64,000 nucleotides of DNA from Candidatus Doudnabacteria bacterium (GTDB taxonomy: Bacteria > Patescibacteriota > Doudnabacteria > UBA920), in contig JBBREH010000001.1 in NCBI GenBank assembly GCA_038203095.1, positions 431 to 64,430 on the forward strand. The letters are read 5' to 3'. The stretch's first letter is position 1. Each line of letters starts with the position of its first letter. The position numbers were made by a program, and so were the translations under genes. Of this stretch, positions 24,899 to 59,590 are shown in pieces. A model generated the notes under the pieces. It was not told the DNA's origin, made no database searches, and saw nothing but the letters and a program-made list of their open reading frames with translations.

Positions 24899-25345
24899 AA
24901 TTTTTAATTTTCAATTTGTAATTTTTAAACAATGTACAAATTTTATAATTATGAAGTATGATTTAGAGGAAAGAACGAGAAAATTTTCAAAAGAATTGAT
25001 TAGGTTTTTGAAAACGATTAAATCAAATTTAATAAACCAATCAATTATTTCTCAATTGGTTAGGTCTGCAACCAGTGTCGGAGCGAATTACTGTGAAGCG
25101 AATGCGGCTAGCTCTAAGAAAGATTTTACGAATAAAATATTTATTTGCAGGAAAGAAATTCAAGAAACAAAATATTGGTTTGAATTATTGGCAGAATCTA
25201 ATCCCGAAAGCAAAGATGAATTAAGAAAATTTTGGAAAGAAGCTCATGAATTGACGTTAATATTTAATAAAATATCAACATCTTTAAGATCAAAATTAGA
25301 AAATTGAAGAATTGTTTATAAATTAAAAATTGAAAATTAAAAATT
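24899..25345. mobile_element. IR-flanked cassette carrying a four-helix-bundle (IVS-type) protein gene, exactly between the glpX stop and the fba start
   Basis: 35-nt AT-rich inverted repeats at 24899..24933 and 25311..25345 (33/35 complementary). Confidence 0.55.
24951..25307 (+). CDS. Four-helix-bundle protein (23S rRNA intervening-sequence protein family)
   Basis: RSATSVGANYCEA...KDF..KI.ICRKEIQETKYWFELL motifs. Confidence 0.65.
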   Translation: MKYDLEERTRKFSKELIRFLKTIKSNLINQSIISQLVRSATSVGANYCEANAASSKKDFTNKIFICRKEIQETKYWFELLAESNPESKDELRKFWKEAHELTLIFNKISTSLRSKLEN

Positions 25346-27191: not shown

Positions 27192-27649
27192 GACAAGCAA
27201 ACAAGCAAACAAGGAGACAAATAAATAGCTTTAAAGATATATTTGCTTGGCAAAAGGCTCATTTATTAGCCTTGGAAGTTTACAGACTGTCAAAAAAATA
27301 TCCGAAAGACGAGTTATATGGATTGACCAGCCAAACTCGTAGAGCAGTGGTTTCTGTGGCTTCAAATTTGGTTGAAGGTTTTAAGCGAGCAGACAATAAG
27401 GAAGATTCACATTTTTGTAATATAGCTCAGGCTTCTTTAGAGGAAGTTAGATATCAGTTACTTCTGGCGAGAGATCTGGGTTATATTAGTAATCTTGAAT
27501 GTGAAAAGACGGAGCAATTATCCGAAGAAGTTTCTAAGTTGATTTATTTGTGGATGAAAAGTAAGAAATAAGTAAGCAAGGAGACAGGGAGTCAAGCAAT
27601 TAAGGATACAAGCTTAAATGCGGAGCGCTTGTTTGCTTGTTTGCTTGTC
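27192..27649. mobile_element. IR-flanked cassette carrying a second four-helix-bundle protein gene, between the LOG gene and tal
   Basis: Perfect 22-nt inverted repeats GACAAGCAAACAAGCAAACAAG at 27192..27213 and 27628..27649. Confidence 0.6.
27272..27571 (+). CDS. Four-helix-bundle protein (23S rRNA IVS protein family), start uncertain
   Basis: YGLTSQTRRAVVSVASNLVEG motif. The family-typical N-terminus (FAWQKAH) extends in frame upstream to 27182 with no ATG/GTG; only the TTG at 27272 or an ATA is available. Confidence 0.6.
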   Translation: MEVYRLSKKYPKDELYGLTSQTRRAVVSVASNLVEGFKRADNKEDSHFCNIAQASLEEVRYQLLLARDLGYISNLECEKTEQLSEEVSKLIYLWMKSKK

Positions 27650-28513: not shown

Positions 28514-29248
28514 CCACTTGGAAGAGGGGACACCTCTTCCAAGTGGGACTAATCTATTAATAAAGCTTGAATTTGTTTTTGTTTTTCTATTAGAGGACCG
28601 CTTTCTTCTACAAATTTTTTATAATCGTTAACCGTCTTAAATTTATCCATAATAACTCGCTTATCACAAAGGCCATCGTTTCTTTTTTCAATGTAATCCG
28701 AATAACTACTAAAGGCATATTCATCCGGAGTTTTTACAATCCCGGCCACAGTTGGGTTTTGATGAATATAGGCCGAAAGCCAAGTTAAATAAGATTCATT
28801 TTCTACCGGTATGGCTTTGAATGCTCCTTGAAATAAATGGCCCACATGGTCGTATTTTTTTTGAAAGTAGACTGCGTAGCCGGTGCATAGTTTTTGGATC
28901 AGTTTGCTAATTTTAATTTCGTTGTTTTGTCTTATTAATAAATGAAAATGGTTAGGCATAAGACAATAGCAGATTAAAGAAAATGCATCTGTAGGCAATT
29001 GCTTTCTTTTGTATTTTATATCAAGAGAGCTTGGGCTAACTTCCAATTCATTTTCTGGGAATAAATTTTCTCTTAATCGATGAATAAAAATTCCATAATC
29101 TTGGGGATCAAAAAAAATATCATTTTTACCATTACCTCGATTAAAGACATGATAATAATTTCCCGCAGTAAAAGTTTTGTAATCACGATAACGCATAATC
29201 ATATTATACCATAAAATTAACTTGGAAGAGGGGACACCTCTTCCAGTT
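28514..29248. mobile_element. IS200/IS605-like or RAYT-like unit: Y1 transposase flanked by near-identical palindromic hairpins
   Basis: CCACTTGGAAGAGG-GGACA-CCTCTTCCAAGTGG at 28514..28547 and AACTTGGAAGAGG-GGACA-CCTCTTCCAGTT at 29219..29248; 40 nt from tRNA-Pro. Confidence 0.6.
28549..29202 (-). CDS. HUH-Y1 transposase (IS200-like / REP-associated tyrosine transposase-like)
   Basis: YHVFNRGN..IFFDPQDY; HUH motif in LMPNHFHLLI; downstream Tyr (YIHQNP). Probable start at M68 of the track ORF, because the upstream part overlaps tRNA-Pro. Confidence 0.65.
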   Translation of the reverse strand: MIMRYRDYKTFTAGNYYHVFNRGNGKNDIFFDPQDYGIFIHRLRENLFPENELEVSPSSLDIKYKRKQLPTDAFSLICYCLMPNHFHLLIRQNNEIKISKLIQKLCTGYAVYFQKKYDHVGHLFQGAFKAIPVENESYLTWLSAYIHQNPTVAGIVKTPDEYAFSSYSDYIEKRNDGLCDKRVIMDKFKTVNDYKKFVEESGPLIEKQKQIQALLID

Positions 29249-29288
29249 GTGCAAGTTGGTTGGAAATGGTACACTTTATCAAGTATTT

Positions 29289-29362
29289 CGGGCTGTAGTA
29301 TACCGGTAGTACGTCTGCTTTGGGAGCAGATAGACTGGGTTCGATTCCCAGCAGCCCGACCA
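29289..29362 (+). tRNA. tRNA-Pro (anticodon TGG), CCA encoded
   Basis: Acceptor CGGGCTG/CAGCCCG; anticodon stem TCTGC/GCAGA with loop TTTGGGA; T-arm CTGGG-TTCGATT-CCCAG. Confidence 0.8.
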
Positions 29363-29424
29363 TGAGCCGCTCTCAGTCTAAGGCGAATTCGGGTTGAAAG
29401 CACGACGATTCAACCAAAATCTTT

Positions 29425-29453
29425 TTGACAAATCAACAGCCTTATATTATAAT
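29425..29453 (+). promoter_or_regulatory. Perfect-consensus sigma70 promoter (TTGACA-N17-TATAAT)
   Basis: TTGACA at 29425..29430, TATAAT at 29448..29453; about 550 nt upstream of the large surface-protein gene. Confidence 0.55.
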
Positions 29454-30007
29454 ACACAAACTTAATCAGAATTTACTTCAACTTATCCCCAAAATGGTTG
29501 TTTTTAAGAACATTTAAGCCTAAATAGTCAGGAAAAGCGCATAAGTAAATTTTGCCTTAAATAAGGCAGAAATTATGAACTTTTCCTGGCTTTTTGCGTG
29601 TGTTTGGGAGTAAAGGTTAGAATTGGGCGAAAGCTGTAACACTTGGAGAAAATAAGCGTCTGGGTATACATAGGGCATAATCAGAAATCAGGAAGCAAAT
29701 AAAACCGCAAAATACAGCCCAAATCATTTGTTTTATTGAACCTTATGGCTTTAGGCGAGCTATAAGGGCTATTAATAGCCTTGGTCGATCTTATGGCGTT
29801 TACACTTATGCACCAAATTTTGGCGCATAGGAAAGGTTTAACGCTTAAGGATTCAATAAACATTATCTTGCCAAACAGTTTTAGCGATCTCTAGAGCGCT
29901 AAATCCTAAGTAAGCGGGGTAGTGCAATTAATTAAAATATTTTAGGCTACTTTATTGATTGTCTCAATTGAATAATCAATTTTGCCTAAAATGGAGTATT
30001 ATATAAA

Positions 30008-33000
30008 ATGCAAAATTCTGTCGCAAAGAAAATCTTTGCAGTAGGATCCGCGGTTGCTATGACATTGTCATTGGTAGTCCCGTTTGCGGCTCAAGCCGCG
30101 GCGCACGCTACCGGTACCAATGTCTCCAGCTCTGACGGCACTGTGTGGATGGTTACATCTACCGGTACCCGCCGCGCCTACACTTCCGCCGGCGCCTTCC
30201 TCTCCTATGGATTTAACTCCTGGAGCCAGGTTGTTCCCGCCAGCGCCGAAGATCTAGCCTTACCGGTTGATTCTGCCGGATTCATCCCCCCGCAAGACGG
30301 CACCATCTTTTGCGCCACTGCCACTAAAGGCTCTGACGTCAAAGGTGAATGTGCTTTAATTTCCGGCGGTATGAAGCGCTCATTCACATCAGCCTCGGTC
30401 TTTACCGGCCTTGGTTTTAGCTTCGCCCGCGCCGTAAACGGAGATTCCTCCTTTATGAGCAAAGGCGCCAATGTTGACAACAGCACCATGGCTCATTTGC
30501 CTGGCGTACTTGTTAACAACAACGGCACCGTCCAGTTAGTCGGCTCAAACGGCTTGCTAGGCGTACCGGATTTAGCCACCTTCAATTCCTGGGGCTATTC
30601 CTTTGCCAACGTTGTCCCGGCTAACGCCGCCGACAAAGCCATGACCCAAACCGGCGTTATGGTTGCCCGTTTGGCCGGACAATTGTCCCCAAGCTGGACA
30701 CCAGCCCAACCATGCACCAGCAACTGCACTCCTCCTCCTGCTAACGGTGGTGGTTTGAGTGTTTCTTTGAGCTCTGCTACTCCTGCCGCTTCTAACGTAG
30801 CTGCCGGAGCTGCCTTTATTCCTTTTACTGCCATCAACTTTACCGCAGCCGGCAACCCGGTTGTAGTAACCGGCGTAAAAGTTAAAAGAGGCGGACTTGG
30901 CGCCGACAGCAACCTGAACAATATGTATTTGTTCAACGGTGCTCAAATGTTAGCTCAGTCTTCTTCTGTTCAAAATGGCGTAGTCACTTATTCCAACAGC
31001 GCAGGTTTGTTCACGGTTCCCGCGAACAGCACCTTAACTATTTGGGTTAAGGGTGACTTGTCTTCCGGCACATCCAGCGGTTTAACCTATACATTTAGTG
31101 TTAACGCCGCTTCGGACATTACCTCCAATGCTTCCAGCGTTAGCGGTTCTTTCCCAATTACCGGTAATATGGTTACCAGCGCAACTGTTGTCTCGCCTTC
31201 TTTGGCGAGTTTGACCGTTGCCGGTATTTCCACAGGTGGCACGGTTAACGCCGGCACCAACAGCTTCTTGGCCGCCCAATATTCTTTACAGTCTGCCAAC
31301 AGCTCTGTAAAAGTAAACGGTATTACATTAACTTTTGTCGGCTCCGCGGCGCTTTCCAGCATTGCGAACGTCAAGTTAATGGCCAACGGCACACAGGTCG
31401 GTTCTACTATGACCAGCCTCTCCAGCACAGTTGTATTCTTTGATTTGTCTTCGGCTCCTTTAATGGTGCCAACAGGCAACACTGTCAACTTGCAGGTAAT
31501 TGCCGATATTACCGGTAGCGCCAACAGAACAGGCAACCTGTTCTCCATTCAGCGCAACTATGATATCCAAAGCTATGACACTACCTACAACGTAGGTATT
31601 TTGTCCTCCAGCACTTTCCCTGTAAATGGCACCAGCTTCTCGATTAATGCCGGTACCTTAACGGTTAACCGCGATGTCACCAGCCGCACCACTCAAATTG
31701 CTCCTGGTCAGACAAACCTCACTTTGGCTACATTTTCATTCCAGGCCAACGGTGAAGACGTAAAAATCTTGAACTTGCCGTTTAAAATTGCCGGCAACGG
31801 TTCCGGTAAATTGGATATCAACAATATCAAATTGGTTGATAACGCGGGTTTTGGTCTAGGCACATCTGATACCACCGAAAAGAATGTGGTAGCTACTCCC
31901 TACACCAACAGCTCTGGCGCGGTTAATGCTCCAGGTTTCCAACAGACCTCTAACTTTAATTATGTCATTCCTGCCAATACCACTCGCTTAATTAGCATTG
32001 TGGCCGACATAATTTCTAGCACTACTTCTACAACTGCTACCGCTTCTTTGACCGGTGGTTCTTCCAACGCTCAAGGCGTAGTTTCAGTTGCCAGTATTAC
32101 TACTCCTGCAGTTTCCGGTAACACTTTGACTGTTAGCACTACTTTGCTTACAGCCACTTTGAGTTCCGGTATGGCCAACCCAAGCTTGGTTGTTCCTAAC
32201 TCCCAGTCGACCAAAGTCGGTTCCTTTGCGATAAACGCAGGTGGAGCTGATTCTGTAGATATTACCACTGTGCAGGTTACTACCGGCGCGACTTCTGTTG
32301 CAGCCAACTTTAACCAATTGGCAGTTATGGTAGGTACTACTCAAGTTGGGCAAACTCAAACCACTTTGAGCAACAGCACTGCCTATAGCTTTAGCCCTGC
32401 TACGGCCATTTCTATTCCGGCCGGCGGTAGCGTGACCATAGATGTCTACGCTGGCGTTCAAAGCGGAGCTGAAACTTCGGTGAACCAAAATGTTGTGTCG
32501 TTGACAGGTCTTACTTCTCAACTACACACCAGCGGTTCCACTATTACCTTCCCGGGTCTCGTTACCGGACAGACCGTTAAGGTTACCGGCAACGGCGCTG
32601 TAACCATTACTCAAAGCCCGAACACTCCGGTGTCCAGGCAATTGGCAATGAACCAGGCTGGCCAAATCTTGGGCGTTATCAAGATTGGTGAAACTACAGG
32701 CAACGAAGCTGCCACTTTGACAGATATTACCATCACCGCCACCGGCGTTGCTGGTACTACCCTAAACGGTACTGCGTCAGCCTCTTTGAACTCCTTGCTT
32801 AACTTCACAATCTCCGCTGCCGACAATGCGGGTACAGCTATTGGTTCGCCTGTTACCAGGTCTTCTTGGACTTCAGGCACCGACGGTACCGGCACCGTGG
32901 TTTACACCGTTACCTTCAACAACGTAAGCTTAGCTATCCCGGCGGGACCTGGTAAGTATATGAACTTGACGGTTAAAGCTGACTTAAACAGCTTTACCAA

Positions 33001-33655
33001 CGGCGCGGCTTCCAACTCAATGTGGACTGTCGGTTTGGCCTCGGCTTCTGCCGCGACCATCCGCGGAACCTCTTCCACCGCAACCATTACTCCGACTTTA
33101 ACCGCCAACGCTACTTCTAATACCACAACGGTTCTTAGAACTACTATTGGCGTAGCCTCGGTTGGCTCAATTGCCAGCCCGGTTAGCGTAAGCGTTAGCC
33201 CAACCGGTGTTCCGAGCGCGACGGAAAATATGGCCATCTTTGCGGTTACTGCTTCTAACAGCGGTGACGCAATTGTGCAAAGCATTACTTTGCAACAAGG
33301 TGGTACAGCCCCAACAGGTGTTGCTGTAAACTACACAGTGTTTGACGCCGCTCAAGGCCTCTCCAGCGCTGTGAGTGTAGCTACTGCCATTACTGGTTCT
33401 ACCGCAACTGCGGTTACCCTAAACCTAAACTCCGCTGCCACTGCTGGCGGTGTGACTATTGGCGCAGGTCAAACCAAGTACTTGGTAGTCCAGGCAAACA
33501 CAACCAACTTTAACACCAACAGTGGCAACAGCTCCAAGTCTTACAGCTTGCAAGCTACCACTTGGCGCTTTAGCGACGGTACAACCGGCGTAGGCCCTTC
33601 TAGCGATGCTAGCTCGGTCACCGCAGTTACCACCGGCGCTTCCCGCACATACTAA
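30008..33655 (+). CDS. Very large secreted surface protein (candidate S-layer/adhesin), T/S/A/G/N-rich
   Basis: Signal peptide with AQAAAHA cleavage motif. N-terminal ..F.SWGY modules as in the 14174 protein. About 1000 aa of low-complexity beta-rich repeats. Minus-strand ORFs inside it are composition artefacts. Confidence 0.7.
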   Translation: MQNSVAKKIFAVGSAVAMTLSLVVPFAAQAAAHATGTNVSSSDGTVWMVTSTGTRRAYTSAGAFLSYGFNSWSQVVPASAEDLALPVDSAGFIPPQDGTIFCATATKGSDVKGECALISGGMKRSFTSASVFTGLGFSFARAVNGDSSFMSKGANVDNSTMAHLPGVLVNNNGTVQLVGSNGLLGVPDLATFNSWGYSFANVVPANAADKAMTQTGVMVARLAGQLSPSWTPAQPCTSNCTPPPANGGGLSVSLSSATPAASNVAAGAAFIPFTAINFTAAGNPVVVTGVKVKRGGLGADSNLNNMYLFNGAQMLAQSSSVQNGVVTYSNSAGLFTVPANSTLTIWVKGDLSSGTSSGLTYTFSVNAASDITSNASSVSGSFPITGNMVTSATVVSPSLASLTVAGISTGGTVNAGTNSFLAAQYSLQSANSSVKVNGITLTFVGSAALSSIANVKLMANGTQVGSTMTSLSSTVVFFDLSSAPLMVPTGNTVNLQVIADITGSANRTGNLFSIQRNYDIQSYDTTYNVGILSSSTFPVNGTSFSINAGTLTVNRDVTSRTTQIAPGQTNLTLATFSFQANGEDVKILNLPFKIAGNGSGKLDINNIKLVDNAGFGLGTSDTTEKNVVATPYTNSSGAVNAPGFQQTSNFNYVIPANTTRLISIVADIISSTTSTTATASLTGGSSNAQGVVSVASITTPAVSGNTLTVSTTLLTATLSSGMANPSLVVPNSQSTKVGSFAINAGGADSVDITTVQVTTGATSVAANFNQLAVMVGTTQVGQTQTTLSNSTAYSFSPATAISIPAGGSVTIDVYAGVQSGAETSVNQNVVSLTGLTSQLHTSGSTITFPGLVTGQTVKVTGNGAVTITQSPNTPVSRQLAMNQAGQILGVIKIGETTGNEAATLTDITITATGVAGTTLNGTASASLNSLLNFTISAADNAGTAIGSPVTRSSWTSGTDGTGTVVYTVTFNNVSLAIPAGPGKYMNLTVKADLNSFTNGAASNSMWTVGLASASAATIRGTSSTATITPTLTANATSNTTTVLRTTIGVASVGSIASPVSVSVSPTGVPSATENMAIFAVTASNSGDAIVQSITLQQGGTAPTGVAVNYTVFDAAQGLSSAVSVATAITGSTATAVTLNLNSAATAGGVTIGAGQTKYLVVQANTTNFNTNSGNSSKSYSLQATTWRFSDGTTGVGPSSDASSVTAVTTGASRTY

Positions 33656-33714
33656 TTTTAAAGTTTTAGTATAAATTACAGCTTTTAATTAAGCTTTAAT
33701 TAGCGAACAAATTA

Positions 33715-33755
33715 CCCCGTCCTTTCTTTATTGAAAGGGCGGGGGTTTGTTTTTA
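33715..33755 (+). terminator. Rho-independent terminator after the surface-protein gene
   Basis: CCCCGTCCTTTC...GAAAGGGCGGGGG followed by a T-run. Confidence 0.65.
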
Positions 33756-33832
33756 GGCAGGGAAATTTGGTATAATCAAGTAGCCGTCGTTTGTGATAGT
33801 TTGCTTCAGGCAACAAAGAGCGTGATTTCTAT

Positions 33833-36079
33833 ATGAGCCAAACATTAGCCAATTTAAAGCTAAATAAAGCGGTGACCAATCTTTTTTTTGGTTTGGTTTT
33901 TTTAAGCTTGGTAGTGCCTTTGGTATTTACCAAACATTTGTTGTATCCGTTTATTTCGACTAAATCTTTGTTGTTAACGGGCGTTATTTTGATAGCTTTG
34001 CCCTGTTACGTTTATTTATTGGCACAAAACAAGAGCATTCGGCCAAATTCAAAAAATCCTATTAGCCTTTTGCTTCTGGTATTTATAACACTCAATTTTA
34101 TTGCCGCGGTATTTGGTGTGAATTTTGGCCGTAGCTTTTGGGGCAACTACGAACGAATGAGCGGGGTGTATTATTCCTTAAATTTACTACTCCTGTATTT
34201 TTATCTGTTTTCAATTTTTCAAATTAGGGAGAACTTAGGCAAAAAGTTTTTGGACGGGGTAATTCTGGTTGCCGGCTTAACATCAGCCTACGCGGTTTTG
34301 GAGCAAAGTGGGATTTTATTTTTTCAGGACGCCTCCTACCCTTCCCGTATTTCCAGCACCTTTGGTAACCCTATATTTTTTGCCAGCTTTTTAATTATCC
34401 CAATATTTTTAAGCGCCTTTTTCGCTGTTGAAGAAAGCGTTAAATGGAAAAAGATTTTTTATTGGGCTTGTTCGGTTTTGGGCATATGGGCAATATTTTT
34501 AAGCAAAACCAGAGGCGCGGAATTTGGCTTAGGCTTAACTTTTGTAGTTTTTGGTTTGATTTTTTTGCTTAATTCTAAAAACAAGCGCTTGCTAAAAGCA
34601 GGGTGGGGGATTTTTGCCGGGTTGGTGTTAGGGGCTGTTTTGCTGTTTAGTTTTCGTAGTCATTTTGATTCCTCTTCAGTCATTGGCCGAGCTTTAACTT
34701 TTAGCGATGGCAATACCAAAGCGCGTCTAATTCAGTGGCAAAGCGGGCTAAAGGGATTTAAAGATCATCCAATTTTAGGAGTTGGGCCGGAGAATTATTA
34801 CGTTATTGCCAATAAATATTTTAATCCGGAAATTTATAAATACGATTCCACTTGGTTTGACAAGCCCCACAATTTTTTACTGGAAGTTTTGCTAACAACG
34901 GGTTTGCTTGGGTTTATGGCTTATATTGGTTTAGTTAGTTTTGTATTTGTCTCGTTTAGAAAAGCGCAGAAGAGTGGTTTAATTTCATTTACTCAGTTTT
35001 GCCTGCTTTCGTCCGCTATGTTTGCTTACCAGGCGCAAAATTTATTTGTCTTTGATACTACCTCAGCAGCCTGGGCATTTTTTATTTTTTTGGCATTTGC
35101 CGGATATTTATGGCAGGCGAGTTTGCCGGAAATTAGTAGTGCCAGCCAAAATCAATCTAAAGTAAACTCTTTGCCGATTTTGCCTCAAGCCCTGCTGGTT
35201 GTTGTTGGTGTGTTGAGTTTTTACGTTTGGTATGTTACCAATTGGGGAACAATTAAAGTTTTATATAATTTAAATATTGCCTATGCCTTAGGTATAAAAA
35301 ATCCCAAAATTACCGCGGAGTATTATGAGCGCGCAGCCGGTCAGCCGTTTGTTTATGATAGGGGAGACATTGGCGTAAAGTATGGCGAGTTTGCGGTGCA
35401 GACGGCACAAGATTTAGGCGCGAGCTTGGAGCCTGGTTTTATTAATCAAACTTTAGATAACGCGGCCAAAGTGCTGGAAAAAACCGTGGCCGGGGTAAAT
35501 AATAACCCCATTTATTGGTATCATTTGGCCAACGATTACAACACAAAAAGTATTTTTAATAAAAGCGCGGTTTTGCCACGGGCTGTGGAGGCGGTAAATA
35601 AAGCCATTGCTTTGGTCCCGACCAGGGTTGAGCCTAAGTTTTTTTTGGTGCAAATTAAAGGTTTGCAAAATGATATTCCCAGCGTGGTAAAAATTTCTGA
35701 AGAAATAGCGGCCGCTGTACCTTGGAACGCGGAAACCAAATGGCGCCTGGCTTTGGCCTATAAAGACGCTAAGCGGCTTGATGACGCTATAGTTCAAGCC
35801 AAGCTTGCTTTAGCCGGTGGGTATAAATTTAAGCTGGTAAAGGAATTTCGTTGGCTAATAAATTATTACGCGGACAAAGAAGACTACCCCCAGGTCGCTT
35901 TACTCTACGAACAGGCTATAGTGCTTTCGCCTAATGATTTCCAGCTCTATGCCAGCTTAGCCACGGTTTATGCTAAACTAGGGGAGAAGGACAAAGCCAT
36001 TTTGGCGGCGCAAAAAGTGGTTGAATTGAACCCGGCTTCTAAAGCTAATGTTGATGCTTTTATAAAATCTTTGCAATAA
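33833..36079 (+). CDS. O-antigen-ligase-domain (Wzy_C) membrane protein with C-terminal TPR repeats
   Basis: LSKTRGAEFG and GVGPENYY motifs in a polytopic N-terminal domain; TPR-like C-terminus. Confidence 0.7.
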   Translation: MSQTLANLKLNKAVTNLFFGLVFLSLVVPLVFTKHLLYPFISTKSLLLTGVILIALPCYVYLLAQNKSIRPNSKNPISLLLLVFITLNFIAAVFGVNFGRSFWGNYERMSGVYYSLNLLLLYFYLFSIFQIRENLGKKFLDGVILVAGLTSAYAVLEQSGILFFQDASYPSRISSTFGNPIFFASFLIIPIFLSAFFAVEESVKWKKIFYWACSVLGIWAIFLSKTRGAEFGLGLTFVVFGLIFLLNSKNKRLLKAGWGIFAGLVLGAVLLFSFRSHFDSSSVIGRALTFSDGNTKARLIQWQSGLKGFKDHPILGVGPENYYVIANKYFNPEIYKYDSTWFDKPHNFLLEVLLTTGLLGFMAYIGLVSFVFVSFRKAQKSGLISFTQFCLLSSAMFAYQAQNLFVFDTTSAAWAFFIFLAFAGYLWQASLPEISSASQNQSKVNSLPILPQALLVVVGVLSFYVWYVTNWGTIKVLYNLNIAYALGIKNPKITAEYYERAAGQPFVYDRGDIGVKYGEFAVQTAQDLGASLEPGFINQTLDNAAKVLEKTVAGVNNNPIYWYHLANDYNTKSIFNKSAVLPRAVEAVNKAIALVPTRVEPKFFLVQIKGLQNDIPSVVKISEEIAAAVPWNAETKWRLALAYKDAKRLDDAIVQAKLALAGGYKFKLVKEFRWLINYYADKEDYPQVALLYEQAIVLSPNDFQLYASLATVYAKLGEKDKAILAAQKVVELNPASKANVDAFIKSLQ

Positions 36080-36096
36080 TAAATTTTAAATAATCT

Positions 36097-38367
36097 ATGC
36101 AAAAAGTTTTCAGGAATATTTTTTTTGTTTTAGTCGCGTTGTCGGTAACGGCTGCGTTTTGGGTGTCCAAGGAATTTTTATTTCCTTTTGTCACCACCAA
36201 AGCCTTCTTTTTTCGTATTTGTATTGAACTGGCACTACCGTTTTACGTTTATTTTTTGGTGTCGGACAAAAAACTTAGGCCAAATTTAAGAAATCCGCTG
36301 TCTTTGGCTGTGCTGGCCTTTCTGGCGGTTAATGTTGCCTCGGCTTTTTTTGGGGCGAGCGTGGTGCGCAGCTTTTGGGGGAACTTTGAACGTATGGGCG
36401 GCGTGTTTTATTTGGGTCATTTGGCGGCTTTATATTTTTACGTTTTGGCTATGGGTCAAATGCCCGGCGACTACATACGCAAGTTTTTAAAGGTAATGCT
36501 TTTGGTCGCGGCGGTAATTACTTTAAACGGTATTTTTGGCTGGCTGAATTTACCGACCCTGGTGGCCGATCCATCTTTGCCTGCTAGAGTCTCAAGCACT
36601 TTGGGTAACCCAATTTATTTAGGTAGTTATTTAATTATCCCATTATTTTTGGCATTATTTTTTACCTTTCAGGCCAAAAATAAATTAGACAAAGCCGTAT
36701 ATTATTTTTTAGCTTTAGCTTTTGCCTGGGGAATTTTTTTAAGCAACACGCGCGGAGCCTTAGTTGGGCTGATTGCCGGAGCCTTTATTTGCGCGATTGT
36801 TTATTTGGCATTAAATCCGAATAAGAAAATTAAACAATATGGTTTTATAATTTTTGGCATTTTGGCGACCTTGGTGTTTATGATGTTTATTTATAGCAGT
36901 AAGCTGCCTAAGAGCGTAGAAAGAATTTTTACGCTCAAAGACAGCAACACTTTGGCGCGTTTAATTCAGTGGAAAATCGCTCTGTCAGGCTACAAAGACC
37001 GGCCGCTACTTGGCACAGGGCCGGAAAATTATTACGTAATTGCCAACCAATACTACCGCCCCGAACTGGCGCAGTACGACCGCAGTTGGTTTGACAAGCC
37101 CCATAATTACATTTTGGAAATTTTGGTAACTAACGGCATTTTAGGATTAATCTCCTATTTGGCAATTTTAGGCTTTATAATAACGGCGCTGTATAAAGGC
37201 TACAAAGCAGAGTTTTATGGTTTGGAGGAATTTTGTTTGTTGCTCGGGGCACTGTTTTCATATCAGGTTCAAAATTTGACCGTGTTTGATACCGTGCCGG
37301 CCAGCTTAATGTTTTATGGTTTTATGGGTTTTGCCGGTTACGTTTGGACAATTTCCCAAACTTCGTTAGTTGAGGTTAAAGCAAAAGAAGCTTTGCCGGT
37401 TTTTAACATTCGGCCGCTGGCATTTTCGGCATTGGGTGTAACTTTTTTATTAATGGCTTATACAATTTACGCCACGGAAATTATTCCAATGCAAATTGCC
37501 AAAAATGTTAACTACGGCTTTGCTTACGCCTCGGTGGACCCGGCCAAAGCTTTTGAATACTTTCAAGTTGCCACATCTTTACCGTTTAATTTTGACAAAA
37601 CCGAAACCGCCAGCAAGTTTGACGAGTTCGCGGCCAATTACGCCCGCAGTGCCGGGCAAAAGGACCAGACCAGGGCGCTTGCAATTCTAGACTCGGCCAG
37701 TGCGTTTACCCAAGAGGCTTTGGCTACCCAGCCCGATTATCCCATTTTGTGGCAGCGAATGTCAGGCCTATATTTATTTCGGTCGGTTCAAATAGGCGGG
37801 AAAGTGGTTGTTGACCCCAGAGCCGAAGAAGCGGCTCAAAAGGCTATTAGTTTAGCCCCCAAAAGGGAAGAGGGGTATTTGGCCTTAGCTCAAATTCGCG
37901 CGCTTCAGGGCGACAACAAGACAGCTAAAGATTTGTTAGCTCAAGCTATGGAAAATTTTCCGGCCGATGCCGGCGTTAAAGTTCAGTTAGCCAATATGTA
38001 CCGGCTTGAGGGTCAAACCGAAAAAGCCGTGGCACTAATGGAGCAGGCAGTTAAGCAGGGTTATGGTTTTAGCAGTTTTGGGGAAATTGAATGGCTTTCC
38101 AATTATTACGTTGGGCTTAAAGAGTACGATAGAGCTATGGATTTGCTTGTGTTAGGACAAAAACTGGAGCCTAACAACTTGCTGGTATTTATAGATTTAG
38201 CCAAGCTCTACGCCGTTTCGGGCAAAAATGATTTGGCCAAAAATTTAGCGGAAAATATTATGAAGTTCGACGCCTCCCGCGCAAAAGAAATGCAAGCGCT
38301 AATAAATTCCTTGCCAAAATCGGGACAAGTTGCCGGAACTGCCAGCGGGACGCCGGCAGGGAAATAG
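36097..38367 (+). CDS. O-antigen-ligase-domain (Wzy_C) membrane protein with C-terminal TPR repeats (paralog)
   Basis: Same architecture as the previous gene: LSNTRGALVG and GTGPENYY motifs; TPR C-terminus. Confidence 0.7.
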   Translation: MQKVFRNIFFVLVALSVTAAFWVSKEFLFPFVTTKAFFFRICIELALPFYVYFLVSDKKLRPNLRNPLSLAVLAFLAVNVASAFFGASVVRSFWGNFERMGGVFYLGHLAALYFYVLAMGQMPGDYIRKFLKVMLLVAAVITLNGIFGWLNLPTLVADPSLPARVSSTLGNPIYLGSYLIIPLFLALFFTFQAKNKLDKAVYYFLALAFAWGIFLSNTRGALVGLIAGAFICAIVYLALNPNKKIKQYGFIIFGILATLVFMMFIYSSKLPKSVERIFTLKDSNTLARLIQWKIALSGYKDRPLLGTGPENYYVIANQYYRPELAQYDRSWFDKPHNYILEILVTNGILGLISYLAILGFIITALYKGYKAEFYGLEEFCLLLGALFSYQVQNLTVFDTVPASLMFYGFMGFAGYVWTISQTSLVEVKAKEALPVFNIRPLAFSALGVTFLLMAYTIYATEIIPMQIAKNVNYGFAYASVDPAKAFEYFQVATSLPFNFDKTETASKFDEFAANYARSAGQKDQTRALAILDSASAFTQEALATQPDYPILWQRMSGLYLFRSVQIGGKVVVDPRAEEAAQKAISLAPKREEGYLALAQIRALQGDNKTAKDLLAQAMENFPADAGVKVQLANMYRLEGQTEKAVALMEQAVKQGYGFSSFGEIEWLSNYYVGLKEYDRAMDLLVLGQKLEPNNLLVFIDLAKLYAVSGKNDLAKNLAENIMKFDASRAKEMQALINSLPKSGQVAGTASGTPAGK

Positions 38368-38634: not shown

Positions 38635-39441
38635 GTGAATGAATCGGCTAACTACGCCACTAATATCCATCATATGACAAAAAAAGACACATCTTGGGGC
38701 AAAGTCGCCAACTGGTACAACAAGCATTTGGAAGAAGGGGATGATACTTACCAGGAAAAATTAATTAAGCCTAACTTGCTTAGAATTTTGGCTCCGCGTG
38801 TGGGTGAAAATATTTTAGATGTGGGCTGTGGGCAGGGTTATTTTTCGCGTGTGTTGGCGGCTGCTGGCGCGAAAATTGTGGGTGTTGATGTTGCAGGGGA
38901 GTTAATTAGGCTTGCCAAGGAGCAGGCAGGTAAAAACGAGGTTTATTTAGTTTTGTCCGCAGAAAAACTTGCAACGCTTGCCGACAGCCGTTTTGATGCC
39001 GCCATTTGCGTTTTGGCTTTGCAAAATATAAAAAATTTACAGGCCGCGATTTTGGAAATGTCGCGTGTACTTAAAACAGGCGGCCGCGCGGTATTGGTGC
39101 TAAACCATCCTGCGTTCCGCGTGCCGGGAGCGTCGGCATGGGCTTATGACGAAAAAGCGAATATCCAATATCGTAATATCAACAAATATCTTTCCGAGGT
39201 TTCTATGGAAGTTGATATGACCCAAGGCATAGTGGACCCTAAAAAGAAAAAATTTACCCTGTCTTTTCACCACCCTCTACAAGTCTACTTTAAAGCCTTT
39301 TTTAAAGCCGGACTTGTTGTAACCCGCCTGGAAGAATGGACTTCCCACAAAACTTCCGACACCGGCCCACGCAAACCCGCAGAAGACAAAGCCCGCAAAG
39401 AAATCCCGCTATTTATGTGCTTGGAGTTGAGGAAAATATAA
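38635..39441 (+). CDS. Class I SAM-dependent methyltransferase
   Basis: ILDVGCGQGYFSRVL motif I. Confidence 0.7.
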   Translation: MNESANYATNIHHMTKKDTSWGKVANWYNKHLEEGDDTYQEKLIKPNLLRILAPRVGENILDVGCGQGYFSRVLAAAGAKIVGVDVAGELIRLAKEQAGKNEVYLVLSAEKLATLADSRFDAAICVLALQNIKNLQAAILEMSRVLKTGGRAVLVLNHPAFRVPGASAWAYDEKANIQYRNINKYLSEVSMEVDMTQGIVDPKKKKFTLSFHHPLQVYFKAFFKAGLVVTRLEEWTSHKTSDTGPRKPAEDKARKEIPLFMCLELRKI

Positions 39442-40059: not shown

Positions 40060-42873
40060 ATGAAAATATTAAAACAGAATCATTATTATATTTTATTTGC
40101 TTCCTTGACTTTATTTGTTCTATTTCCACCCAAAGTCTCGGCAAGCAGTGTTTATTTTGCCCAGAATAACTCTACCGGCAATGTGTTTTATGAATATATT
40201 TATTTAGCGCATAACGGACATAGCTACCAAGGCGATGACAGCTCCGGTCATTCATTTGGATCCGATTTTGCAGATTATATAGCCAACTTTGCTAATGGGT
40301 CTGACTACCCTATTGCCACAACCTCCGTGACTTCCTATGTCACGGATATTATTTTGCAAATTAAAGATACTAACCTCACAGAGAACGCTGATTATGCCAT
40401 TCAGTTTGACTGTATTGGATTTGACGGTTCCTATCTCGGTGCTTTCCATTCCGCATATGTAAATTCCTCAGCTTTTTCTGATGATTTTGTTTCAGTAGAT
40501 TTCCCTTTTTCCGGCATAAACTGCGATTTAAGCAAATATCAAATACATCAAATTGTTGAGTATAGGGGCGGTCAGTCGGTTGTGCAAACTGCTATTCGAG
40601 TCCGAGCCCAAAATACTAATTCGTTAAATGGGTACGGCCTGTCCAATGATAATGGTACTATTATTGATGATTACGAACCACAGATGGTTATTAAAAGCGG
40701 ACCGCTGGTGGCAAAAACTCCGGTGTTGATTGTGCCAGGGACTTTGGGAACAGAAATAGATAAAGGTGCCGATATTCTTTGGCCAAATATAGATAAGATG
40801 TTCTCGGTGAGTCCGATTCACTCCGATGATTTTATGGATCCGTTGGCTTTTAACCAAGATGGCAGTCCTTTGAATGCAAGTTTGAGCTTAGGGCAGGTAC
40901 TAACAGTCTCAGTTCAAGCTTTTAATTATTCTCAAAAACTTCTTGAAGATTTTATTTCCCAGGGATATGCTACCGATACCAACTTGTCCCTTTTTCCCTA
41001 CGACTGGCGCGATGACATTGCTAAAAACGCAAATACTGTTTTAAGTCAAAAAATAGATCAACTGATAGCTTCTTCCGGCTCATCCAAAATTGATATTATT
41101 GCGCATAGCCAGGGCGGGTTGCTCATAAAAAAATTATTACTTGACCATCCCGAATACCAGACGAAAATTAATAAGTTAGTTTTTGTAGGTACGCCCAATT
41201 TAGGCTCGCCGAAATCTTTAAAGGTATTGATCTATGGCGATGATTTTGGTATTAAAAAATATGGTTTAGGGCTCGACCCGCTTGAAATAAAAAAAATTTC
41301 CCAAAACATGCCTTCGGTTTATCAAATGCTGCCCAGTCGGGAATATTTTAACCATTCCTCAGGTTATTTGGGGCAATATACTTTTAACTTGGATTCTAAA
41401 TCTGGCAAGATTCTCCCTACTTTTGACGAAACAAAAAATATCCTCAAAACACCTTTTTATAATTTAAACAGCAGTTTGGTTGACAGCGCCGACACTTTTC
41501 ATTCATCAGCCTTTGATAACTTTGACTTTAGCAATACCGGCATTAAGACTTTTAACATTATGGGTTGTAAATCTGCCACCATTGGTAAAATGTTTATTAA
41601 TGGAACTGGCGGAAAAGATGATATTACTTACGAGCCGGGGGATGGCACGGTGCCTTTAATTTCGGCCAGTAATATTAACGGAGCGCAGAATTTTTATGTT
41701 ACTAAAACTGGGGACATCCATGGAACTATGTTAACAACGGATGGAGTGCGTCAAAAAATAGTAAATATTATTGCCGATACCAACATTCCAACCTCCGGCC
41801 TTATTACCTCAAATCCCGCGCTTTGCGTGTTTAAAGGGAAGAAAGTAGAAGTCCATAGCCCCGTGGATTTGAATATTTACGATGAGAATAACAACCACGT
41901 TGGTCCCAACCCAGACGGCAGTTTTGACTATCAAATAGAAGGCGTGCAGTATGATGAAATTGGTCATAATAAATATGCTTTTCTGCCTGATGACGGACAT
42001 ATTTATACGCTTAAGTTAAACGCCACCGGCATGGGAAGTTTTAATTTTTATTCTTCAAGTGTAAACGGCAGTCAAACAGATAATATTGCTTATTATAGTG
42101 ATGTACTTATTGCTTCTTCTTCCACAGCCCAAGTAATCCTAAATTCTGATAACAATCAAACAATTGATTTTACCAGCGACAGCAGAACAATTGCTCCTTC
42201 CTCAATTTTAGACGCCAATCAGTCCCTTGACCCCATCTCTCCCATTTCAACCTCCACCATAACCGGTAGTTTAACTAGTCCTGGGGTTTACACTGGCAGT
42301 GTTAGTATCAGCTTGTTAGCAACTGATCCTGTTATTGTTGGCAAGGAGAACCAGACATCGGCAGTGCTTAAAACCCAATATGGTCTTGATGGGGGAGGCT
42401 ATCAAACTTACAGCACCACATCGCCGGTTAGCGTATCATCCGAAGGCCAACATAGCATAACCTTCTTCTCCACTGACCGTGCAGGTAACAATGAGCCGGA
42501 GCAGACGGTTAGTTTTGCCATCATAAAGCAGGTTGTTTCATCAGGCGACGGGGGCGGGGGAGGAGGGCCATCACAATTTAATACACCTTTTTACTTCATT
42601 ACAACACCCACAACCGCAGGCCGGGTTTTGGGCACCAGCACAACGGCTTCCATAGTTAATCCCCTAATTAGCCAGTTGCCGCCACAGCCCCAGCTCCGCC
42701 ATAAGGAAGGTAGCTTAATTGTGGACGCTAGAGGTACAGTTTACCTGGTTCAAAAGCAGTTGCTTCGTCCATTTACTTCAGCCAAACGTTTTTTGTTTTT
42801 AAAATTCAAGTTCAAAAATGTCAGCCCTATGTTAGAAGGTGACAGTGGTTATTTTTTGGGGATGCCGATGTGA
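40060..42873 (+). CDS. Large secreted alpha/beta-hydrolase (lipase/esterase-like) protein
   Basis: Signal peptide; nucleophile-elbow motif AHSQGG; long C-terminal extension with a Gly-run. Confidence 0.6.
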   Translation: MKILKQNHYYILFASLTLFVLFPPKVSASSVYFAQNNSTGNVFYEYIYLAHNGHSYQGDDSSGHSFGSDFADYIANFANGSDYPIATTSVTSYVTDIILQIKDTNLTENADYAIQFDCIGFDGSYLGAFHSAYVNSSAFSDDFVSVDFPFSGINCDLSKYQIHQIVEYRGGQSVVQTAIRVRAQNTNSLNGYGLSNDNGTIIDDYEPQMVIKSGPLVAKTPVLIVPGTLGTEIDKGADILWPNIDKMFSVSPIHSDDFMDPLAFNQDGSPLNASLSLGQVLTVSVQAFNYSQKLLEDFISQGYATDTNLSLFPYDWRDDIAKNANTVLSQKIDQLIASSGSSKIDIIAHSQGGLLIKKLLLDHPEYQTKINKLVFVGTPNLGSPKSLKVLIYGDDFGIKKYGLGLDPLEIKKISQNMPSVYQMLPSREYFNHSSGYLGQYTFNLDSKSGKILPTFDETKNILKTPFYNLNSSLVDSADTFHSSAFDNFDFSNTGIKTFNIMGCKSATIGKMFINGTGGKDDITYEPGDGTVPLISASNINGAQNFYVTKTGDIHGTMLTTDGVRQKIVNIIADTNIPTSGLITSNPALCVFKGKKVEVHSPVDLNIYDENNNHVGPNPDGSFDYQIEGVQYDEIGHNKYAFLPDDGHIYTLKLNATGMGSFNFYSSSVNGSQTDNIAYYSDVLIASSSTAQVILNSDNNQTIDFTSDSRTIAPSSILDANQSLDPISPISTSTITGSLTSPGVYTGSVSISLLATDPVIVGKENQTSAVLKTQYGLDGGGYQTYSTTSPVSVSSEGQHSITFFSTDRAGNNEPEQTVSFAIIKQVVSSGDGGGGGGPSQFNTPFYFITTPTTAGRVLGTSTTASIVNPLISQLPPQPQLRHKEGSLIVDARGTVYLVQKQLLRPFTSAKRFLFLKFKFKNVSPMLEGDSGYFLGMPM

Positions 42874-42876: not shown

Positions 42877-43980
42877 CTATTTTTTTATAATTTTTTCGTA
42901 AACTTTTTTTGTTTCTTCAAACATTTTTTCCGCGGTAAAGAGCTTGGCTCTTTCGGAGGATTTTTTGGAGAGTAATTGCACTCTATTACTATCTAGTAAT
43001 AGAGTGCTAAGCGCGGCGCTTAAGGCTTTGGGGTTTTCGGGGTCTACTAAAATGCCGGCATTGCCTAAGGCTTCCGCGTTTCCGCCAACGTTAGTGGCAA
43101 TTATTGGCAAACCTGTCTGCATGGCCTCCAGAAGGGCATACGGAAAGCCTTCTTTGCGGGATGGCAAAACAAAAATGTCCAGCGCTTTTAAATACCTGGC
43201 TGCTTGGTCAACTTTTCCTAGCATGACTACGATGTGTTTCAATCTTAAATCTTTAATCTTTAATCTTAAATCTTCTGACTCCGGCCCATCGCCGAACAGT
43301 ATAACCTGAATTTTGCCTTTTATATCATCGCTCATCATCGCAATTGCTTCTATTAGTACATCCACACCTTTAGTTTTGTAAAAATTGGCAACGCATCCGA
43401 TCAGGATTTTATTGGTTGCCAAACCGAGTGTTTGCCGCGCTTCATCCCGTTCAAAAAAATCTATCGGTTCAAGGCCATTATGGATTACAGAGATTTTATC
43501 TACGCTAATTAAGTGATTATCCAGCGCGGACTGTTTGTCGGCATTGGATACACAAATAATAAAATCGCGGTAAGCAGAAGCGGTTTTTTCCAGAGCAATG
43601 TAAAAAGATTTTAGGGCGTAAGAAAGTGGCTCGTTAAAAATAAAGCCGTGCGCGGTAAACACCACCTTAGTTTTTAGCCCAATCGCAGCAAAACTGCCCA
43701 AGACCCCGGCCTTGGAAGAATTTAAGTGGACAACATCAGGTTTGTAGTTTTTAATCAGCTCACGGATTTCCCATGCGCCTAAAAAATCGTGCCAGGGGTT
43801 AATGGCGCGCTTTAAATGTTCCAGCGGAAAAGTTTCCACGCCGAATTTGGTTGCCTCACGGAAAAGCCTGTTTTCGTTGCTTCCCGCGGCAATGGCGCCG
43901 CCAAAATGCCTAGCCATTTCCAGAGTGTAATTTTGTGCCCCGCCGCCATCGGCTTGGGTAATAATGTAGAGAAGTTTCAT
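42877..43980 (-). CDS. GT4-family glycosyltransferase
   Basis: E.FPYALLEAMQTGLPIIATNVGG motif typical of GT4 (GT-B fold). Confidence 0.8.
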   Translation of the reverse strand: MKLLYIITQADGGGAQNYTLEMARHFGGAIAAGSNENRLFREATKFGVETFPLEHLKRAINPWHDFLGAWEIRELIKNYKPDVVHLNSSKAGVLGSFAAIGLKTKVVFTAHGFIFNEPLSYALKSFYIALEKTASAYRDFIICVSNADKQSALDNHLISVDKISVIHNGLEPIDFFERDEARQTLGLATNKILIGCVANFYKTKGVDVLIEAIAMMSDDIKGKIQVILFGDGPESEDLRLKIKDLRLKHIVVMLGKVDQAARYLKALDIFVLPSRKEGFPYALLEAMQTGLPIIATNVGGNAEALGNAGILVDPENPKALSAALSTLLLDSNRVQLLSKKSSERAKLFTAEKMFEETKKVYEKIIKK

Positions 43981-46157: not shown

Positions 46158-46945
46158 AATTGTTGAGCCTAAACATTTGGGGCGGCACGCAGGGGCAGCC
46201 GCTCTTTAATTATTTGATGGCTGAGGCAAAAGATACTGATATTTTTTGTTTTCAGGAAGTATTTTCGGCCAAAGAACCCGCTCCGTTGGTCAGTTCGGAA
46301 GCGCGAATGTACATGTTTGAAGAGCTGGAAAAAATGCTACCCAGTTTTCATGGGGTTTTTTGCCAAAGAAGCAGCGGTTATAATTACCATAGTGCGGTTG
46401 AGTTTCCCGTTTCTCATGGCCTGGCAATTTTTGTTAAAGAGAGCATAAAAATAATTGGCAGCCGAGCAGAAACAATAGGTGCGCCTACAGACCCTCATGC
46501 CAGCTTGGCAGATGGCGATACTAAAATTCAAATTTTGGATCTTGCTTTGGCCAACGGTTCTTTGTCTGTATTTAATTATCACGGACCGGCTTTGCCGGGT
46601 GACAAGCTGGACACCCCCGAAAGAATTTTGTGCTCGGAGGCTTTAAAAGCACTTTTGGAAAAGTCACAATCAAAAGCAAAAATTCTTTGCGGGGATTTTA
46701 ATTTAATGCCCGAAACCCAAAGCATAAAAATATTGGAGGCAGGCATGAGAAATTTAATTAAGGAATATGCTATTAAAAGTACCAGAAATAAAATTTCGTG
46801 GAATAAATATCATAACATCCAGCATTTTGCGGATTATACTTTTGTCTCGCCGGGAGTTGAAGTAAAAAGTTTTGAGGTACCCTATAATGAAGTTTCCGAC
46901 CATTTGCCAATGATTCTGGAATTCTTGATAGATGCGCCTTTTTAA
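46154..46945 (+). CDS. Endonuclease/exonuclease/phosphatase (EEP) family protein
   Basis: N-terminal LSLNIWGG...FCFQEV motif and C-terminal SDHLP motif. Confidence 0.6.
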
Positions 46946-47939: not shown

Positions 47940-47947
47940 TTAGTGCG

Positions 47948-49854: not shown

Positions 49855-49860
49855 AGAAGT

Positions 49861-52779: not shown

Positions 52780-52784
52780 AAATT

Positions 52785-56495: not shown

Positions 56496-56499
56496 AATT

Positions 56500-59587: not shown

Positions 59588-59590
59588 ACA

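Follow-up and report, generated by a model that had tools for sequence, protein, structure and literature searches.

What do two membrane-bound enzymes of glycan transfer do directly downstream of the gene for a giant, Ser/Thr-rich surface protein? The question is posed by a locus of a Candidatus Doudnabacteria bacterium, contained in a 64,000-nt stretch of contig JBBREH010000001.1 (positions 431–64,430, forward strand; hereafter the window). The organism belongs to the Patescibacteria (Candidate Phyla Radiation, CPR), which are ultra-small, mostly uncultured bacteria thought to live attached to other cells. In an initial annotation, the giant protein and the two enzymes, each joining a Wzy_C domain to tetratricopeptide repeats (TPR), were taken for a candidate protein O-glycosylation module with the surface protein as its substrate. 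The three open reading frames (ORFs) were recovered at the coordinates given there:

30008–33655, forward strand: gene of the giant surface protein, 1215 aa; residues 1–30 are the signal peptide
33833–36079, forward strand: wzyA, Wzy_C + TPR paralog A, 748 aa; Pfam Wzy_C match of 1.1e-23 at residues 213–365, C-terminal TPR families
36097–38367, forward strand: wzyB, Wzy_C + TPR paralog B, 756 aa; 13 transmembrane (TM) helices, TPR at residues 482–738

Our analysis favors a locus resembling those that glycosylate surface-layer (S-layer) proteins, in which the TPR-bearing enzymes act as O-oligosaccharyltransferases (O-OTases) on the giant protein and probably on other proteins that carry the same N-terminal module. 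We give this reading a probability of about 45%. The class of the enzymes, their topology, their recurrent linkage and the secreted protein itself all speak for the proposed module, whereas the giant protein is not established as the acceptor.

Both paralogs belong to Pfam Wzy_C (PF04932), scoring 84.1 and 84.3 bits (E ~1e-23) against a cut-off of 31.7, and both match several Pfam TPR families at the C-terminus; Pfam matches of the two paralogs are reported at E ≤ 0.01. They align with each other over the full length at 37% identity (E 9e-159), in agreement with their description as tandem Wzy_C + TPR paralogs. The AlphaFold2 (AF2) model of the wzyB product is of high confidence (predicted local distance difference test, pLDDT, 90.6; predicted template modeling score, pTM, 0.87). 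Its first twelve helices match the WaaL structure 7TPG (Foldseek E 1.4e-5, TMt 0.60, 458 aligned columns). They are followed by a disordered 17-residue linker, a 13th TM helix (residues 439–462, helical to 476) and a TPR solenoid (482–738), which has the TPR of O-GlcNAc transferase (OGT) among its best structural matches. A profile of the Wzy family run against PDB sequences gave matches dominated by TPR proteins.

Three residues, R219, R288 and H336, are invariant across 45 family members. R215/R288/H338 of Escherichia coli WaaL and R224/R298/H349 of PglL are required for activity (PMC3643930). The two sets probably correspond, being equated by near-identical numbering and motif context without a direct alignment. 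An H-N-x9-G-x2-G motif is present in both paralogs and starts at residue 346 in wzyA. Lys and Arg are concentrated in alternate loops (~20 versus ~7 helix-flanking residues), which would be the cytoplasmic ones if the N-terminus is inside. This orientation would place the His loop outside, as in WaaL, and the odd 13th helix would then put the TPR domain outside the membrane as well. The extracytoplasmic TPR assumed in the initial annotation is thus borne out by topology prediction, on the grounds of 13 TM helices, K/R-rich alternate loops and a WaaL-like His loop. These results support the assignment of the Wzy_C-TPR proteins to the WaaL/PglL-type glycan transferases, with catalytic residues in place and activity predicted.

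WaaL is the best structural match outside the TPR proteins and shares the catalytic His loop and the Arg residues; sequence identity is 15%, however, and WaaL has 12 TM helices and no TPR. To our knowledge, the acceptor of WaaL, the lipid A-core, is not expected in Patescibacteria. Since these bacteria, as far as we know, lack lipopolysaccharide (LPS), a classical lipid A-core acceptor is unlikely here, and the window contains no LPS genes. With PglL/PilO of Gram-negative bacteria the enzymes have in common the Wzy_C domain, the WaaL-like membrane fold and the Arg-Arg-His residues, but they carry in addition the 13th TM helix and a TPR domain of ~260 aa. The candidate target next to them is a giant protein built of immunoglobulin (Ig)-like domains instead of a pilin. 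Bacillus anthracis also has a paralogous pair of Wzy/WaaL-clan membrane proteins, WpaA and WpaB, whose loss disturbs S-layer assembly (PMC6030368). Those proteins differ in that TPR are not reported for them and in their Pfam family, PF13425 (O-antigen_lig), which lies in the same clan as Wzy_C and was not matched by either paralog at E ≤ 0.01; their activity, too, is only implicated. A glycosyltransferase joined to TPR is also seen in TfpW, OGT and TMTC, and TfpW has a periplasmic TPR and is encoded after its pilin target (bioRxiv 10.1101/2020.04.19.049825). The catalytic folds are different (ArnT-like GT-C for TfpW, GT-B for OGT), and the likeness is an analogy of domain logic only. Searches of the literature on CPR O-antigen ligases and on Patescibacteria oligosaccharyltransferases found nothing relevant. 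The 13-TM Wzy_C-TPR family is a new component.

The linkage between the giant gene and the enzymes recurs in related genomes. Neighborhoods were compared in 79 loci drawn from species-representative genomes and scored with tblastn, and linkage was counted in the 48 giant-gene loci with enough downstream sequence. In 31 of the 48, the giant gene is followed by a Wzy_C-TPR gene at a distance of 0.13–8.7 kb, with a median gap of ~0.9 kb. When the search was started from the enzyme side, on regions chosen regardless of the giant gene, all three look-ups found a giant homolog just upstream and a cluster of GT4, epimerase, glycosyltransferase (GT) and Wzx genes downstream. One of the three, locus L085, has another upstream context and shows the order giant-TPR-Wzy-Wzy-GT4, a small TPR protein being encoded between the giant and the Wzy genes. 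PglL-type genes commonly adjoin the genes of their targets (21 of 31 cases; PMC3643930). The present enzymes are similarly found near the giant gene, but they also stand immediately beside a glycan cluster.

Two enzyme genes, of wzyA type and then wzyB type as in the window, are present in nine loci, and a single copy in 22 of the 31; the two-copy count was taken from tblastn coordinates, as an automatic tally counts some single genes twice. The second gene in the nine loci is 42–57% identical to wzyB, and more than 50% identical in five. The two paralogs are ancient subfamilies. This conserved order could mean that they divide the labor, one serving as a Wzy-type polymerase of repeat units and the other as a ligase or oligosaccharyltransferase to protein or another acceptor. 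The window encodes a Wzx flippase, whereas no further polymerase candidate was recognized there, and Pfam Wzy_C also includes many Wzy polymerases (PMC4594306). Such a split appears rather unlikely, as both paralogs have the full Arg-Arg-His set and the same 13-TM + TPR architecture at 37% identity, and one copy suffices in most of the related loci.

The candidate acceptor is secreted and, at 27% Ser + Thr, as rich in these residues as initially described. Thr, Ser, Ala and Gly make up 14.1%, 13.3%, 12.2% and 10% of the protein, charged residues are scarce (K+R 3.4%, D+E 3.4%), there are four Cys, and the calculated pI of the mature form is ~6. The N-terminus, MQNSVAKKIFAVGSAVAMTLSLVVPFAAQA followed by AAH, reads as a Sec signal peptide with an AXA-type cleavage site (AQA/A). 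A total of 324 homologs were found; the best 120 are mostly 1130–1400 aa long and all lack annotation. Named records among the homologs are Patescibacteria, chiefly Candidatus Doudnabacteria. The protein had no Pfam or NCBIfam match, and a profile of the giant family matched none of the PDB chains at E ≤ 1. Internal repeats were not detected by BLASTP self-comparison (E ≤ 0.01); the β domains are too diverged. The AF2 model of the mature protein, built with 95 homologs as input, has a mean pLDDT of 88.4 and shows three similar β/α repeats (mature residues 1–200), a disordered linker and about eight all-β domains that extend to the C-terminus:

30104–30691, forward strand: N-terminal module of ~195 aa with three repeats, residues ~33–228; candidate cell-envelope anchor
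30701–30745, forward strand: disordered Ser/Thr/Pro-rich linker in the AF2 model, residues ~232–246
30752–33652, forward strand: array of about eight all-β (Ig-like sandwich) domains, from DSSP on the AF2 model

When the full model was compared with the PDB by Foldseek, only generic tandem Ig-like arrays were returned (PrgB, α-2-macroglobulin, integrin legs); the query being the whole model, this result is uninformative on the N-terminal module. The linker (mature residues 202–216, starting PSWTPAQPCTSNCTPP) is the sole segment of the model with pLDDT below 50. Its sequence drifts among homologs yet remains rich in Ser, Thr, Pro and Gly, and it is the most plausible site of O-glycosylation in the giant protein. 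The gene has a higher GC content than its surroundings (50% versus 40%). Horizontal transfer was considered as the source and rejected, as the excess falls mainly on codon position 2 (0.556) and therefore reflects the Ala/Gly/Thr/Ser-rich composition. S-layers have been observed or predicted in Patescibacteria (bioRxiv 10.1101/2024.05.28.596244). Judged from its sequence features, the giant protein is a secreted and probably very abundant surface protein, and it is a strong candidate for the main surface-coat protein, of S-layer type, of this bacterium.

How might the giant protein be held on the cell? No known wall-anchoring domain (SLH, CWB2 and similar) was found in it by Pfam or PDB searches. 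The N-terminal module is by far the most conserved region of the giant family, and it matches no Pfam family and no PDB entry by sequence. In an exhaustive HMMER search, 982 representative proteins proved to carry it (264 with E ≤ 1e-30), either immediately behind the signal peptide or at the very C-terminal end. Outside the giant family, it stands alone on many other proteins of related genomes (loci L060–L082). Among the domains with which it is combined are fn3 arrays, trypsin-like and subtilisin (subtilase) proteases, DUF1800/DUF1501, Kazal inhibitors and He_PIG Ig domains. Because this spread resembles the distribution of the SLH and CWB2 wall anchors, the module reads as a probable new envelope-anchoring domain, and its distribution suggests one specific to this lineage.

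Two further groups of proteins touch on this module. A second module-bearing class (L037, L062, L064, L073 and L106) carries the promoter and leader element of the giant gene described below. Its members are mostly ~740 aa long (1156 aa in L037), those of L062 and L064 being very acidic (D/E-rich), and the class may be a second major surface protein. Within the window, a 706-aa ORF at 14174–16294 shows 34–37% identity over 50–80 residues to the module repeats along with a weak Ig-like match, and may belong to the module family as a diverged member.

The giant gene bears the expression signals of a gene for an abundant protein. The following elements delimit it and the enzyme genes:

29425–29453, forward strand: σ70 consensus promoter of the giant gene, TTGACA-17 nt-TATAAT, 12/12 match
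29454–30007, forward strand: long 5' leader of the giant gene, ~550 nt
33715–33744, forward strand: intrinsic terminator of the giant gene, a 12-bp stem with 8 GC pairs and a T-run
33768–33776, forward strand: extended −10 (TGGTATAAT) of the wzyA-wzyB unit, read from the sequence as a putative assignment

The promoter lies 555 nt 5' of the ATG, just after a tRNA-Pro gene (29289–29362). Upstream regions were compared in a set of 58, of which a few are one contig fetched repeatedly; leader motifs were counted in 52 distinct leaders. A perfect TTGACA-17-TATAAT was present in 47 of the 58 and a copy with one mismatch in nine more, so that 56 of 58 have one; these copies sit 445–890 nt before the start codon. 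The same promoter recurs in independent metagenome contigs, and conservation across the upstream regions shows that it is not a chance match. The perfect-consensus promoter and long leader that had been assigned to this gene are therefore confirmed. Leader length is kept at about 420–860 nt across loci, and the leader in the window folds better than dinucleotide shuffles (minimum free energy z = −5.3); an Rfam search at E ≤ 1 matched no family in it apart from the neighboring tRNA-Pro. A comparable terminator hairpin follows the giant gene in 41 of 48 homologous loci, mostly 40–60 nt past the stop codon. The extended −10 was not picked up by a two-hexamer promoter scan, and wzyB starts 18 nt past the end of wzyA.

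S-layer (slp) genes have efficient promoters and long, stabilizing, structured 5' untranslated regions (UTRs) (PMC3666127). The conserved promoter, long leader and strong terminator form, at the level of sequence signals, the signature of an S-layer-type structural gene, and very high expression of the giant gene is predicted from them. An example is slpA of Lactobacillus (PMC3666127), with a very efficient promoter and a long structured 5' UTR. The leader of the giant gene differs in being far longer, in lacking an Rfam match and in containing a sequence-invariant 25-nt hairpin beside the ribosome-binding site.

Downstream of the enzymes, the window continues with the following genes:

38635–39441, forward strand: S-adenosylmethionine-dependent methyltransferase (Pfam Methyltransf_11, 6.6e-22), possibly acting in glycan modification
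40060–42873, forward strand: LCAT-like α/β hydrolase, 937 aa, with an OmpL47-type β-barrel domain; a recurrent neighbor
42877–43980, reverse strand: convergent GT4 glycosyltransferase, first gene of the glycan block
44106–63477, forward strand: glycan biosynthesis cluster, reaching at least 63.5 kb in the window

The cluster encodes a GDP-mannose dehydratase, epimerases/reductases, a GT11 fucosyltransferase, GT2 enzymes, a Wzx flippase (57339–58889), RmlC/RmlD and a nucleotidyltransferase. Roughly two thirds of the family have a glycan block next to the giant gene. Homologs of the LCAT-like hydrolase occur near Wzy genes in six other loci (L005, L014, L018, L022, L033 and L084), and this protein may be a surface lipase or acyltransferase of the same envelope locus.

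Some details of the cluster are recorded here for their own sake. The match of the GDP-mannose 4,6-dehydratase (44106–46157, 683 aa) is split in two around a LAGLIDADG-type homing-endonuclease domain, which suggests an intein inside the enzyme. RmlC- and RmlD-like genes occur twice at 58958–61546, with one short RmlD and a 149-aa ORF that has both an RmlC-like and a flippase C-terminal match, as signs of a duplication or rearrangement within the cluster. An 892-aa ORF in mid cluster (53476–56154) has no Pfam match even at E ≤ 1.

A number of results weigh against glycosylation of the giant protein by the neighboring enzymes. The terminator and the extended −10 between them argue that the giant gene is monocistronic and that wzyA-wzyB is a separate unit; by these signals the giant gene and the enzyme genes would be adjacent transcription units, not one operon. 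Seventeen of the 48 giant loci have no Wzy or glycan genes within ~9 kb, and 15 of these 17 lie in other genomic contexts, for example beside Mur ligase/Ddl in L003. The upstream glycolytic genes (GlpX, FBA, LOG and TAL) are kept beside the giant gene with a frequency close to that of the Wzy genes, so that plain conservation of synteny is high in the clade. In at least 20 of 31 loci, the last Wzy_C-TPR gene is followed by a convergent GT4 gene, usually no more than a few hundred nt away and in many cases at 10–120 nt, whereas the distance from giant to Wzy gene varies. This makes the Wzy genes members of the glycan block, and they are tied more closely to its GT4 and Wzx genes than to the giant gene. 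Linkage across related genomes is seen at 31 of 48 loci and in all three look-ups from the enzyme side; the unlinked loci and the tighter coupling to the glycan cluster point the other way. Among the scanned window ORFs of at least 100 aa, no initiating phosphoglycosyltransferase (Bac_transf, Glycos_transf_4) was found; its gene may lie outside the window. Known S-layer structures are absent from the 50 best fold matches of the giant protein, and its Ser/Thr richness within β-sandwich domains is no evidence for glycosylation. Finally, PglL_A (PF15864) was not found in either paralog at E ≤ 0.01, a motif also missing from PilO, which is a proven O-OTase (PMC3643930), and NCBIfam gave weak sub-threshold matches to IctB (the best), RfaL and TuaE, from which no subfamily can be assigned.

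High synteny raises the possibility that the linkage is incidental, the Wzy_C-TPR proteins having some other role, IctB-like or as general O-OTases for pili, and being neighbors of the giant gene through synteny. That IctB is the best NCBIfam match, far below cut-off, that the glycolytic genes are conserved as strongly as the Wzy genes and that linkage is missing in over a third of the loci are what this explanation would predict. It is quite unlikely in view of L085, which retains its gene order in a different upstream context, of the persistence of linkage across variable insertions of 0.1–8.7 kb, and of the catalytic residues and adjoining glycan cluster, which indicate a role in glycan transfer.

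The tight link of the Wzy genes to the GT4/Wzx block bears on a more serious alternative, which we hold to be possible. The enzymes may polymerize or ligate a wall- or membrane-anchored glycopolymer, similar to secondary cell wall polysaccharide (SCWP) or teichuronic acid, that serves as the ligand of the N-terminal module. This would explain a surface gene beside a glycan locus, just as S-layer genes of SLH type stand next to SCWP genes, and a module that is a generic anchor on ~1000 proteins needs a common envelope ligand. WpaA/WpaB of B. anthracis, of the same Pfam clan, are implicated in SCWP polymerization or ligation, and their depletion disturbs S-layer assembly (PMC6030368). The weak similarity to TuaE, the giant loci without Wzy enzymes nearby and the known occurrence of TPRs in polysaccharide export fit as well; weak sub-threshold TPR matches were to PgaA and BcsC (wzyB) and to PrsT (both paralogs). 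By family, on the other hand, the proteins group in Pfam Wzy_C with WaaL, PglL, PilO, WsaB and WsfB and do not match PF13425. Wzy_C with a C-terminal TPR is an architecture reported for predicted and known protein O-OTases (PMC2943079), and attachment of wall polymers to peptidoglycan in Gram-positive bacteria is normally carried out by LCP enzymes (PMC6030368). The loci of other module-bearing proteins contain no Wzy gene, the three Wzy matches in this class being fragmented giant genes, though a shared ligand needs no linkage. A slg-type surface-glycosylation module, then, fits the enzymes, their likely topology and the recurrent neighborhood and is partly supported, with the wall-glycopolymer role as its serious alternative.

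The loci closest to the present one are the slg loci of Geobacillus stearothermophilus NRS 2004/3a and Paenibacillus alvei CCM 2051T, in both of which the surface-layer gene lies beside a glycan cluster. WsfB of P. alvei, a predicted S-layer O-OTase, consists of Wzy_C and a C-terminal TPR, the architecture also reported for PglL, whereas WsaB of Geobacillus, likewise a predicted O-OTase, has a separate upstream TPR protein (PMC2943079). The present locus is thus similar, compared by reported architecture, in having a Wzy_C transferase with TPR, fused or neighboring. The small TPR protein encoded between the giant and Wzy genes of L085 recalls the WsaA-WsaB arrangement. Rhamnose-type nucleotide-sugar genes, glycosyltransferases and a methyltransferase are also held in common, and in the slg systems the glycan is exported before transfer (PMC2943079). 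There are distinctions, however. The giant protein shares no detectable sequence with SgsE/SpaA, and an undescribed anchor module replaces SLH. Export is of the Wzx flippase type, the transferase is present as two paralogs, the host is a Patescibacterium, and the initiating transferase (WsaP/WbaP or WecA type) was not found in the window.

Gene content, folds, conserved residues, expression signals and gene linkage are the observed basis on which a mechanism for S-layer-like glycosylation can be proposed. The giant gene would act as a monocistronic, very strongly expressed structural gene, by virtue of its perfect promoter, ~550-nt structured leader and strong terminator. Its product would be exported via Sec, held on the envelope by the N-terminal module and display about eight Ig-like domains in an S-layer role that we infer. 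The downstream cluster would make an undecaprenyl-pyrophosphate-linked glycan with 6-deoxyhexoses of fucose/rhamnose type, and the Wzx flippase would carry this putative lipid-linked donor to the outer face of the membrane. There, given the predicted topology, the Wzy_C-TPR enzymes would take the glycan from its lipid carrier and attach it en bloc to Ser/Thr of surface proteins, the extracytoplasmic TPR recruiting acceptor regions that are unfolded or form a linker. The giant protein, above all its S/T/P linker, would most likely be the major acceptor, and the two paralogs may differ in glycan or acceptor specificity.

The long leader of the giant gene contains a conserved RNA element just before the coding region:

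29926–29996, forward strand: conserved leader RNA element, five parts from the box to the Shine-Dalgarno sequence (SD)
29926–29935, forward strand: AATTAATTAA box, 5' part of the element
29938–29947, forward strand: 5' strand of helix P1
29955–29979, forward strand: 25-mer core hairpin, TTGATTGTCTCAATTGAATAATCAA
29984–29993, forward strand: 3' strand of helix P1
29993–29996, forward strand: SD GGAG, at which the P1 3' strand ends

The core or a close variant is present in all 52 distinct leaders, just 5' of the ribosome-binding site. The core was also counted in 86 scanned loci and in an independent scan of metagenome contigs. In 36 of the 86, the 25-mer is found in exact form, with one copy per locus, even where the giant proteins are only 35–40% identical. 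A degenerate pattern of the core gave 61 matches in these loci, all on the coding strand and all preceding an ORF that opens with the family signal peptide. The module motif was scored in 60 of the 61 ORFs, and the last one ends after 80 aa. The same arrangement was found in 31 further metagenome contigs.

The variable positions of the core remain paired (GC/GU and GU/GC/AU), and the P2 closing pair of the hairpin alternates between AU, UA and GC. The enclosing helix P1 is formed in the window by UAUUUUAGGC paired with GCCUAAAAUG; its bases differ among loci while complementarity is kept, and some loci hold an extra hairpin inserted within it. MAFFT did not register P1 in columns, and the helix was tested by an alignment-free cross-pairing permutation. 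Native flanks form 8.0 bp on average versus 5.7 bp when cross-paired between loci, and none of 2000 permutations reached the native mean. A DNA operator or second promoter was also considered for the 25-mer and found less likely than an RNA hairpin, because the flanking helix covaries and tolerates inserted hairpins. The element looks like a new cis-regulatory or stabilizing RNA, apparently specific to the genes of surface proteins with the N-terminal module.

A second conserved site lies near the 5' end of the leader:

29483–29491, forward strand: DnaA-box-like 9-mer TTATCCCCA, 29 nt after the −10 hexamer

The pattern (T/A)TATCC(A/C)C(A/T) lies 26–29 nt (mostly 28) past the −10 in 22 of the 52 distinct leaders, and in relatives the 9-mer is often exactly TTATCCACA. 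It could be a putative site for DnaA or another regulator within the first ~30 transcribed bases. A general rule of DnaA-box spacing was dropped, a similar motif upstream of groES being at another distance from its promoter.

Taken together, the anchor module, the Ig-array coat, the leader element and the O-glycosylating TPR-Wzy_C enzymes could be parts of one lineage-specific envelope system of Doudnabacteria-type Patescibacteria, none of them described before. In such a system the ~195-aa anchor would sort about a thousand surface proteins to the envelope, and the hairpin and DnaA-box-like site would control only genes whose products start with the module. This joint reading is tentative, and as a whole it is doubtful.

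The upstream part of the window holds further small genes. Two genes for '23S rRNA intervening-sequence protein' (bAvd-like, four-helix) lie at 24951–25307 and 27272–27571 among GlpX, FBA, LOG and TAL, and small genes akin to this pair occur in related loci. An IS200/Y1-transposase-like ORF on the reverse strand (28549–29403) overlaps the forward-strand tRNA-Pro gene (29289–29362) if read from its GTG; its true start is probably further in.

Given the presumed attachment of Patescibacteria to other cells, the cell surface is central to their biology, and its molecular parts are almost unknown. For one large lineage, the locus supplies a candidate major surface-coat protein together with its envelope-anchoring module, as well as enzymes and glycan genes probably responsible for decorating the surface. 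It also supplies a new mRNA leader element, strongly conserved, by which the surface genes with the highest predicted expression are marked. Three components are new: the anchor module, the 13-TM Wzy_C-TPR family and the leader RNA element. If the Wzy_C-TPR proteins are protein O-oligosaccharyltransferases, S-layer-type glycosylation would be extended to the CPR, and the family would offer new glycoengineering enzymes with a built-in acceptor-recruiting domain.

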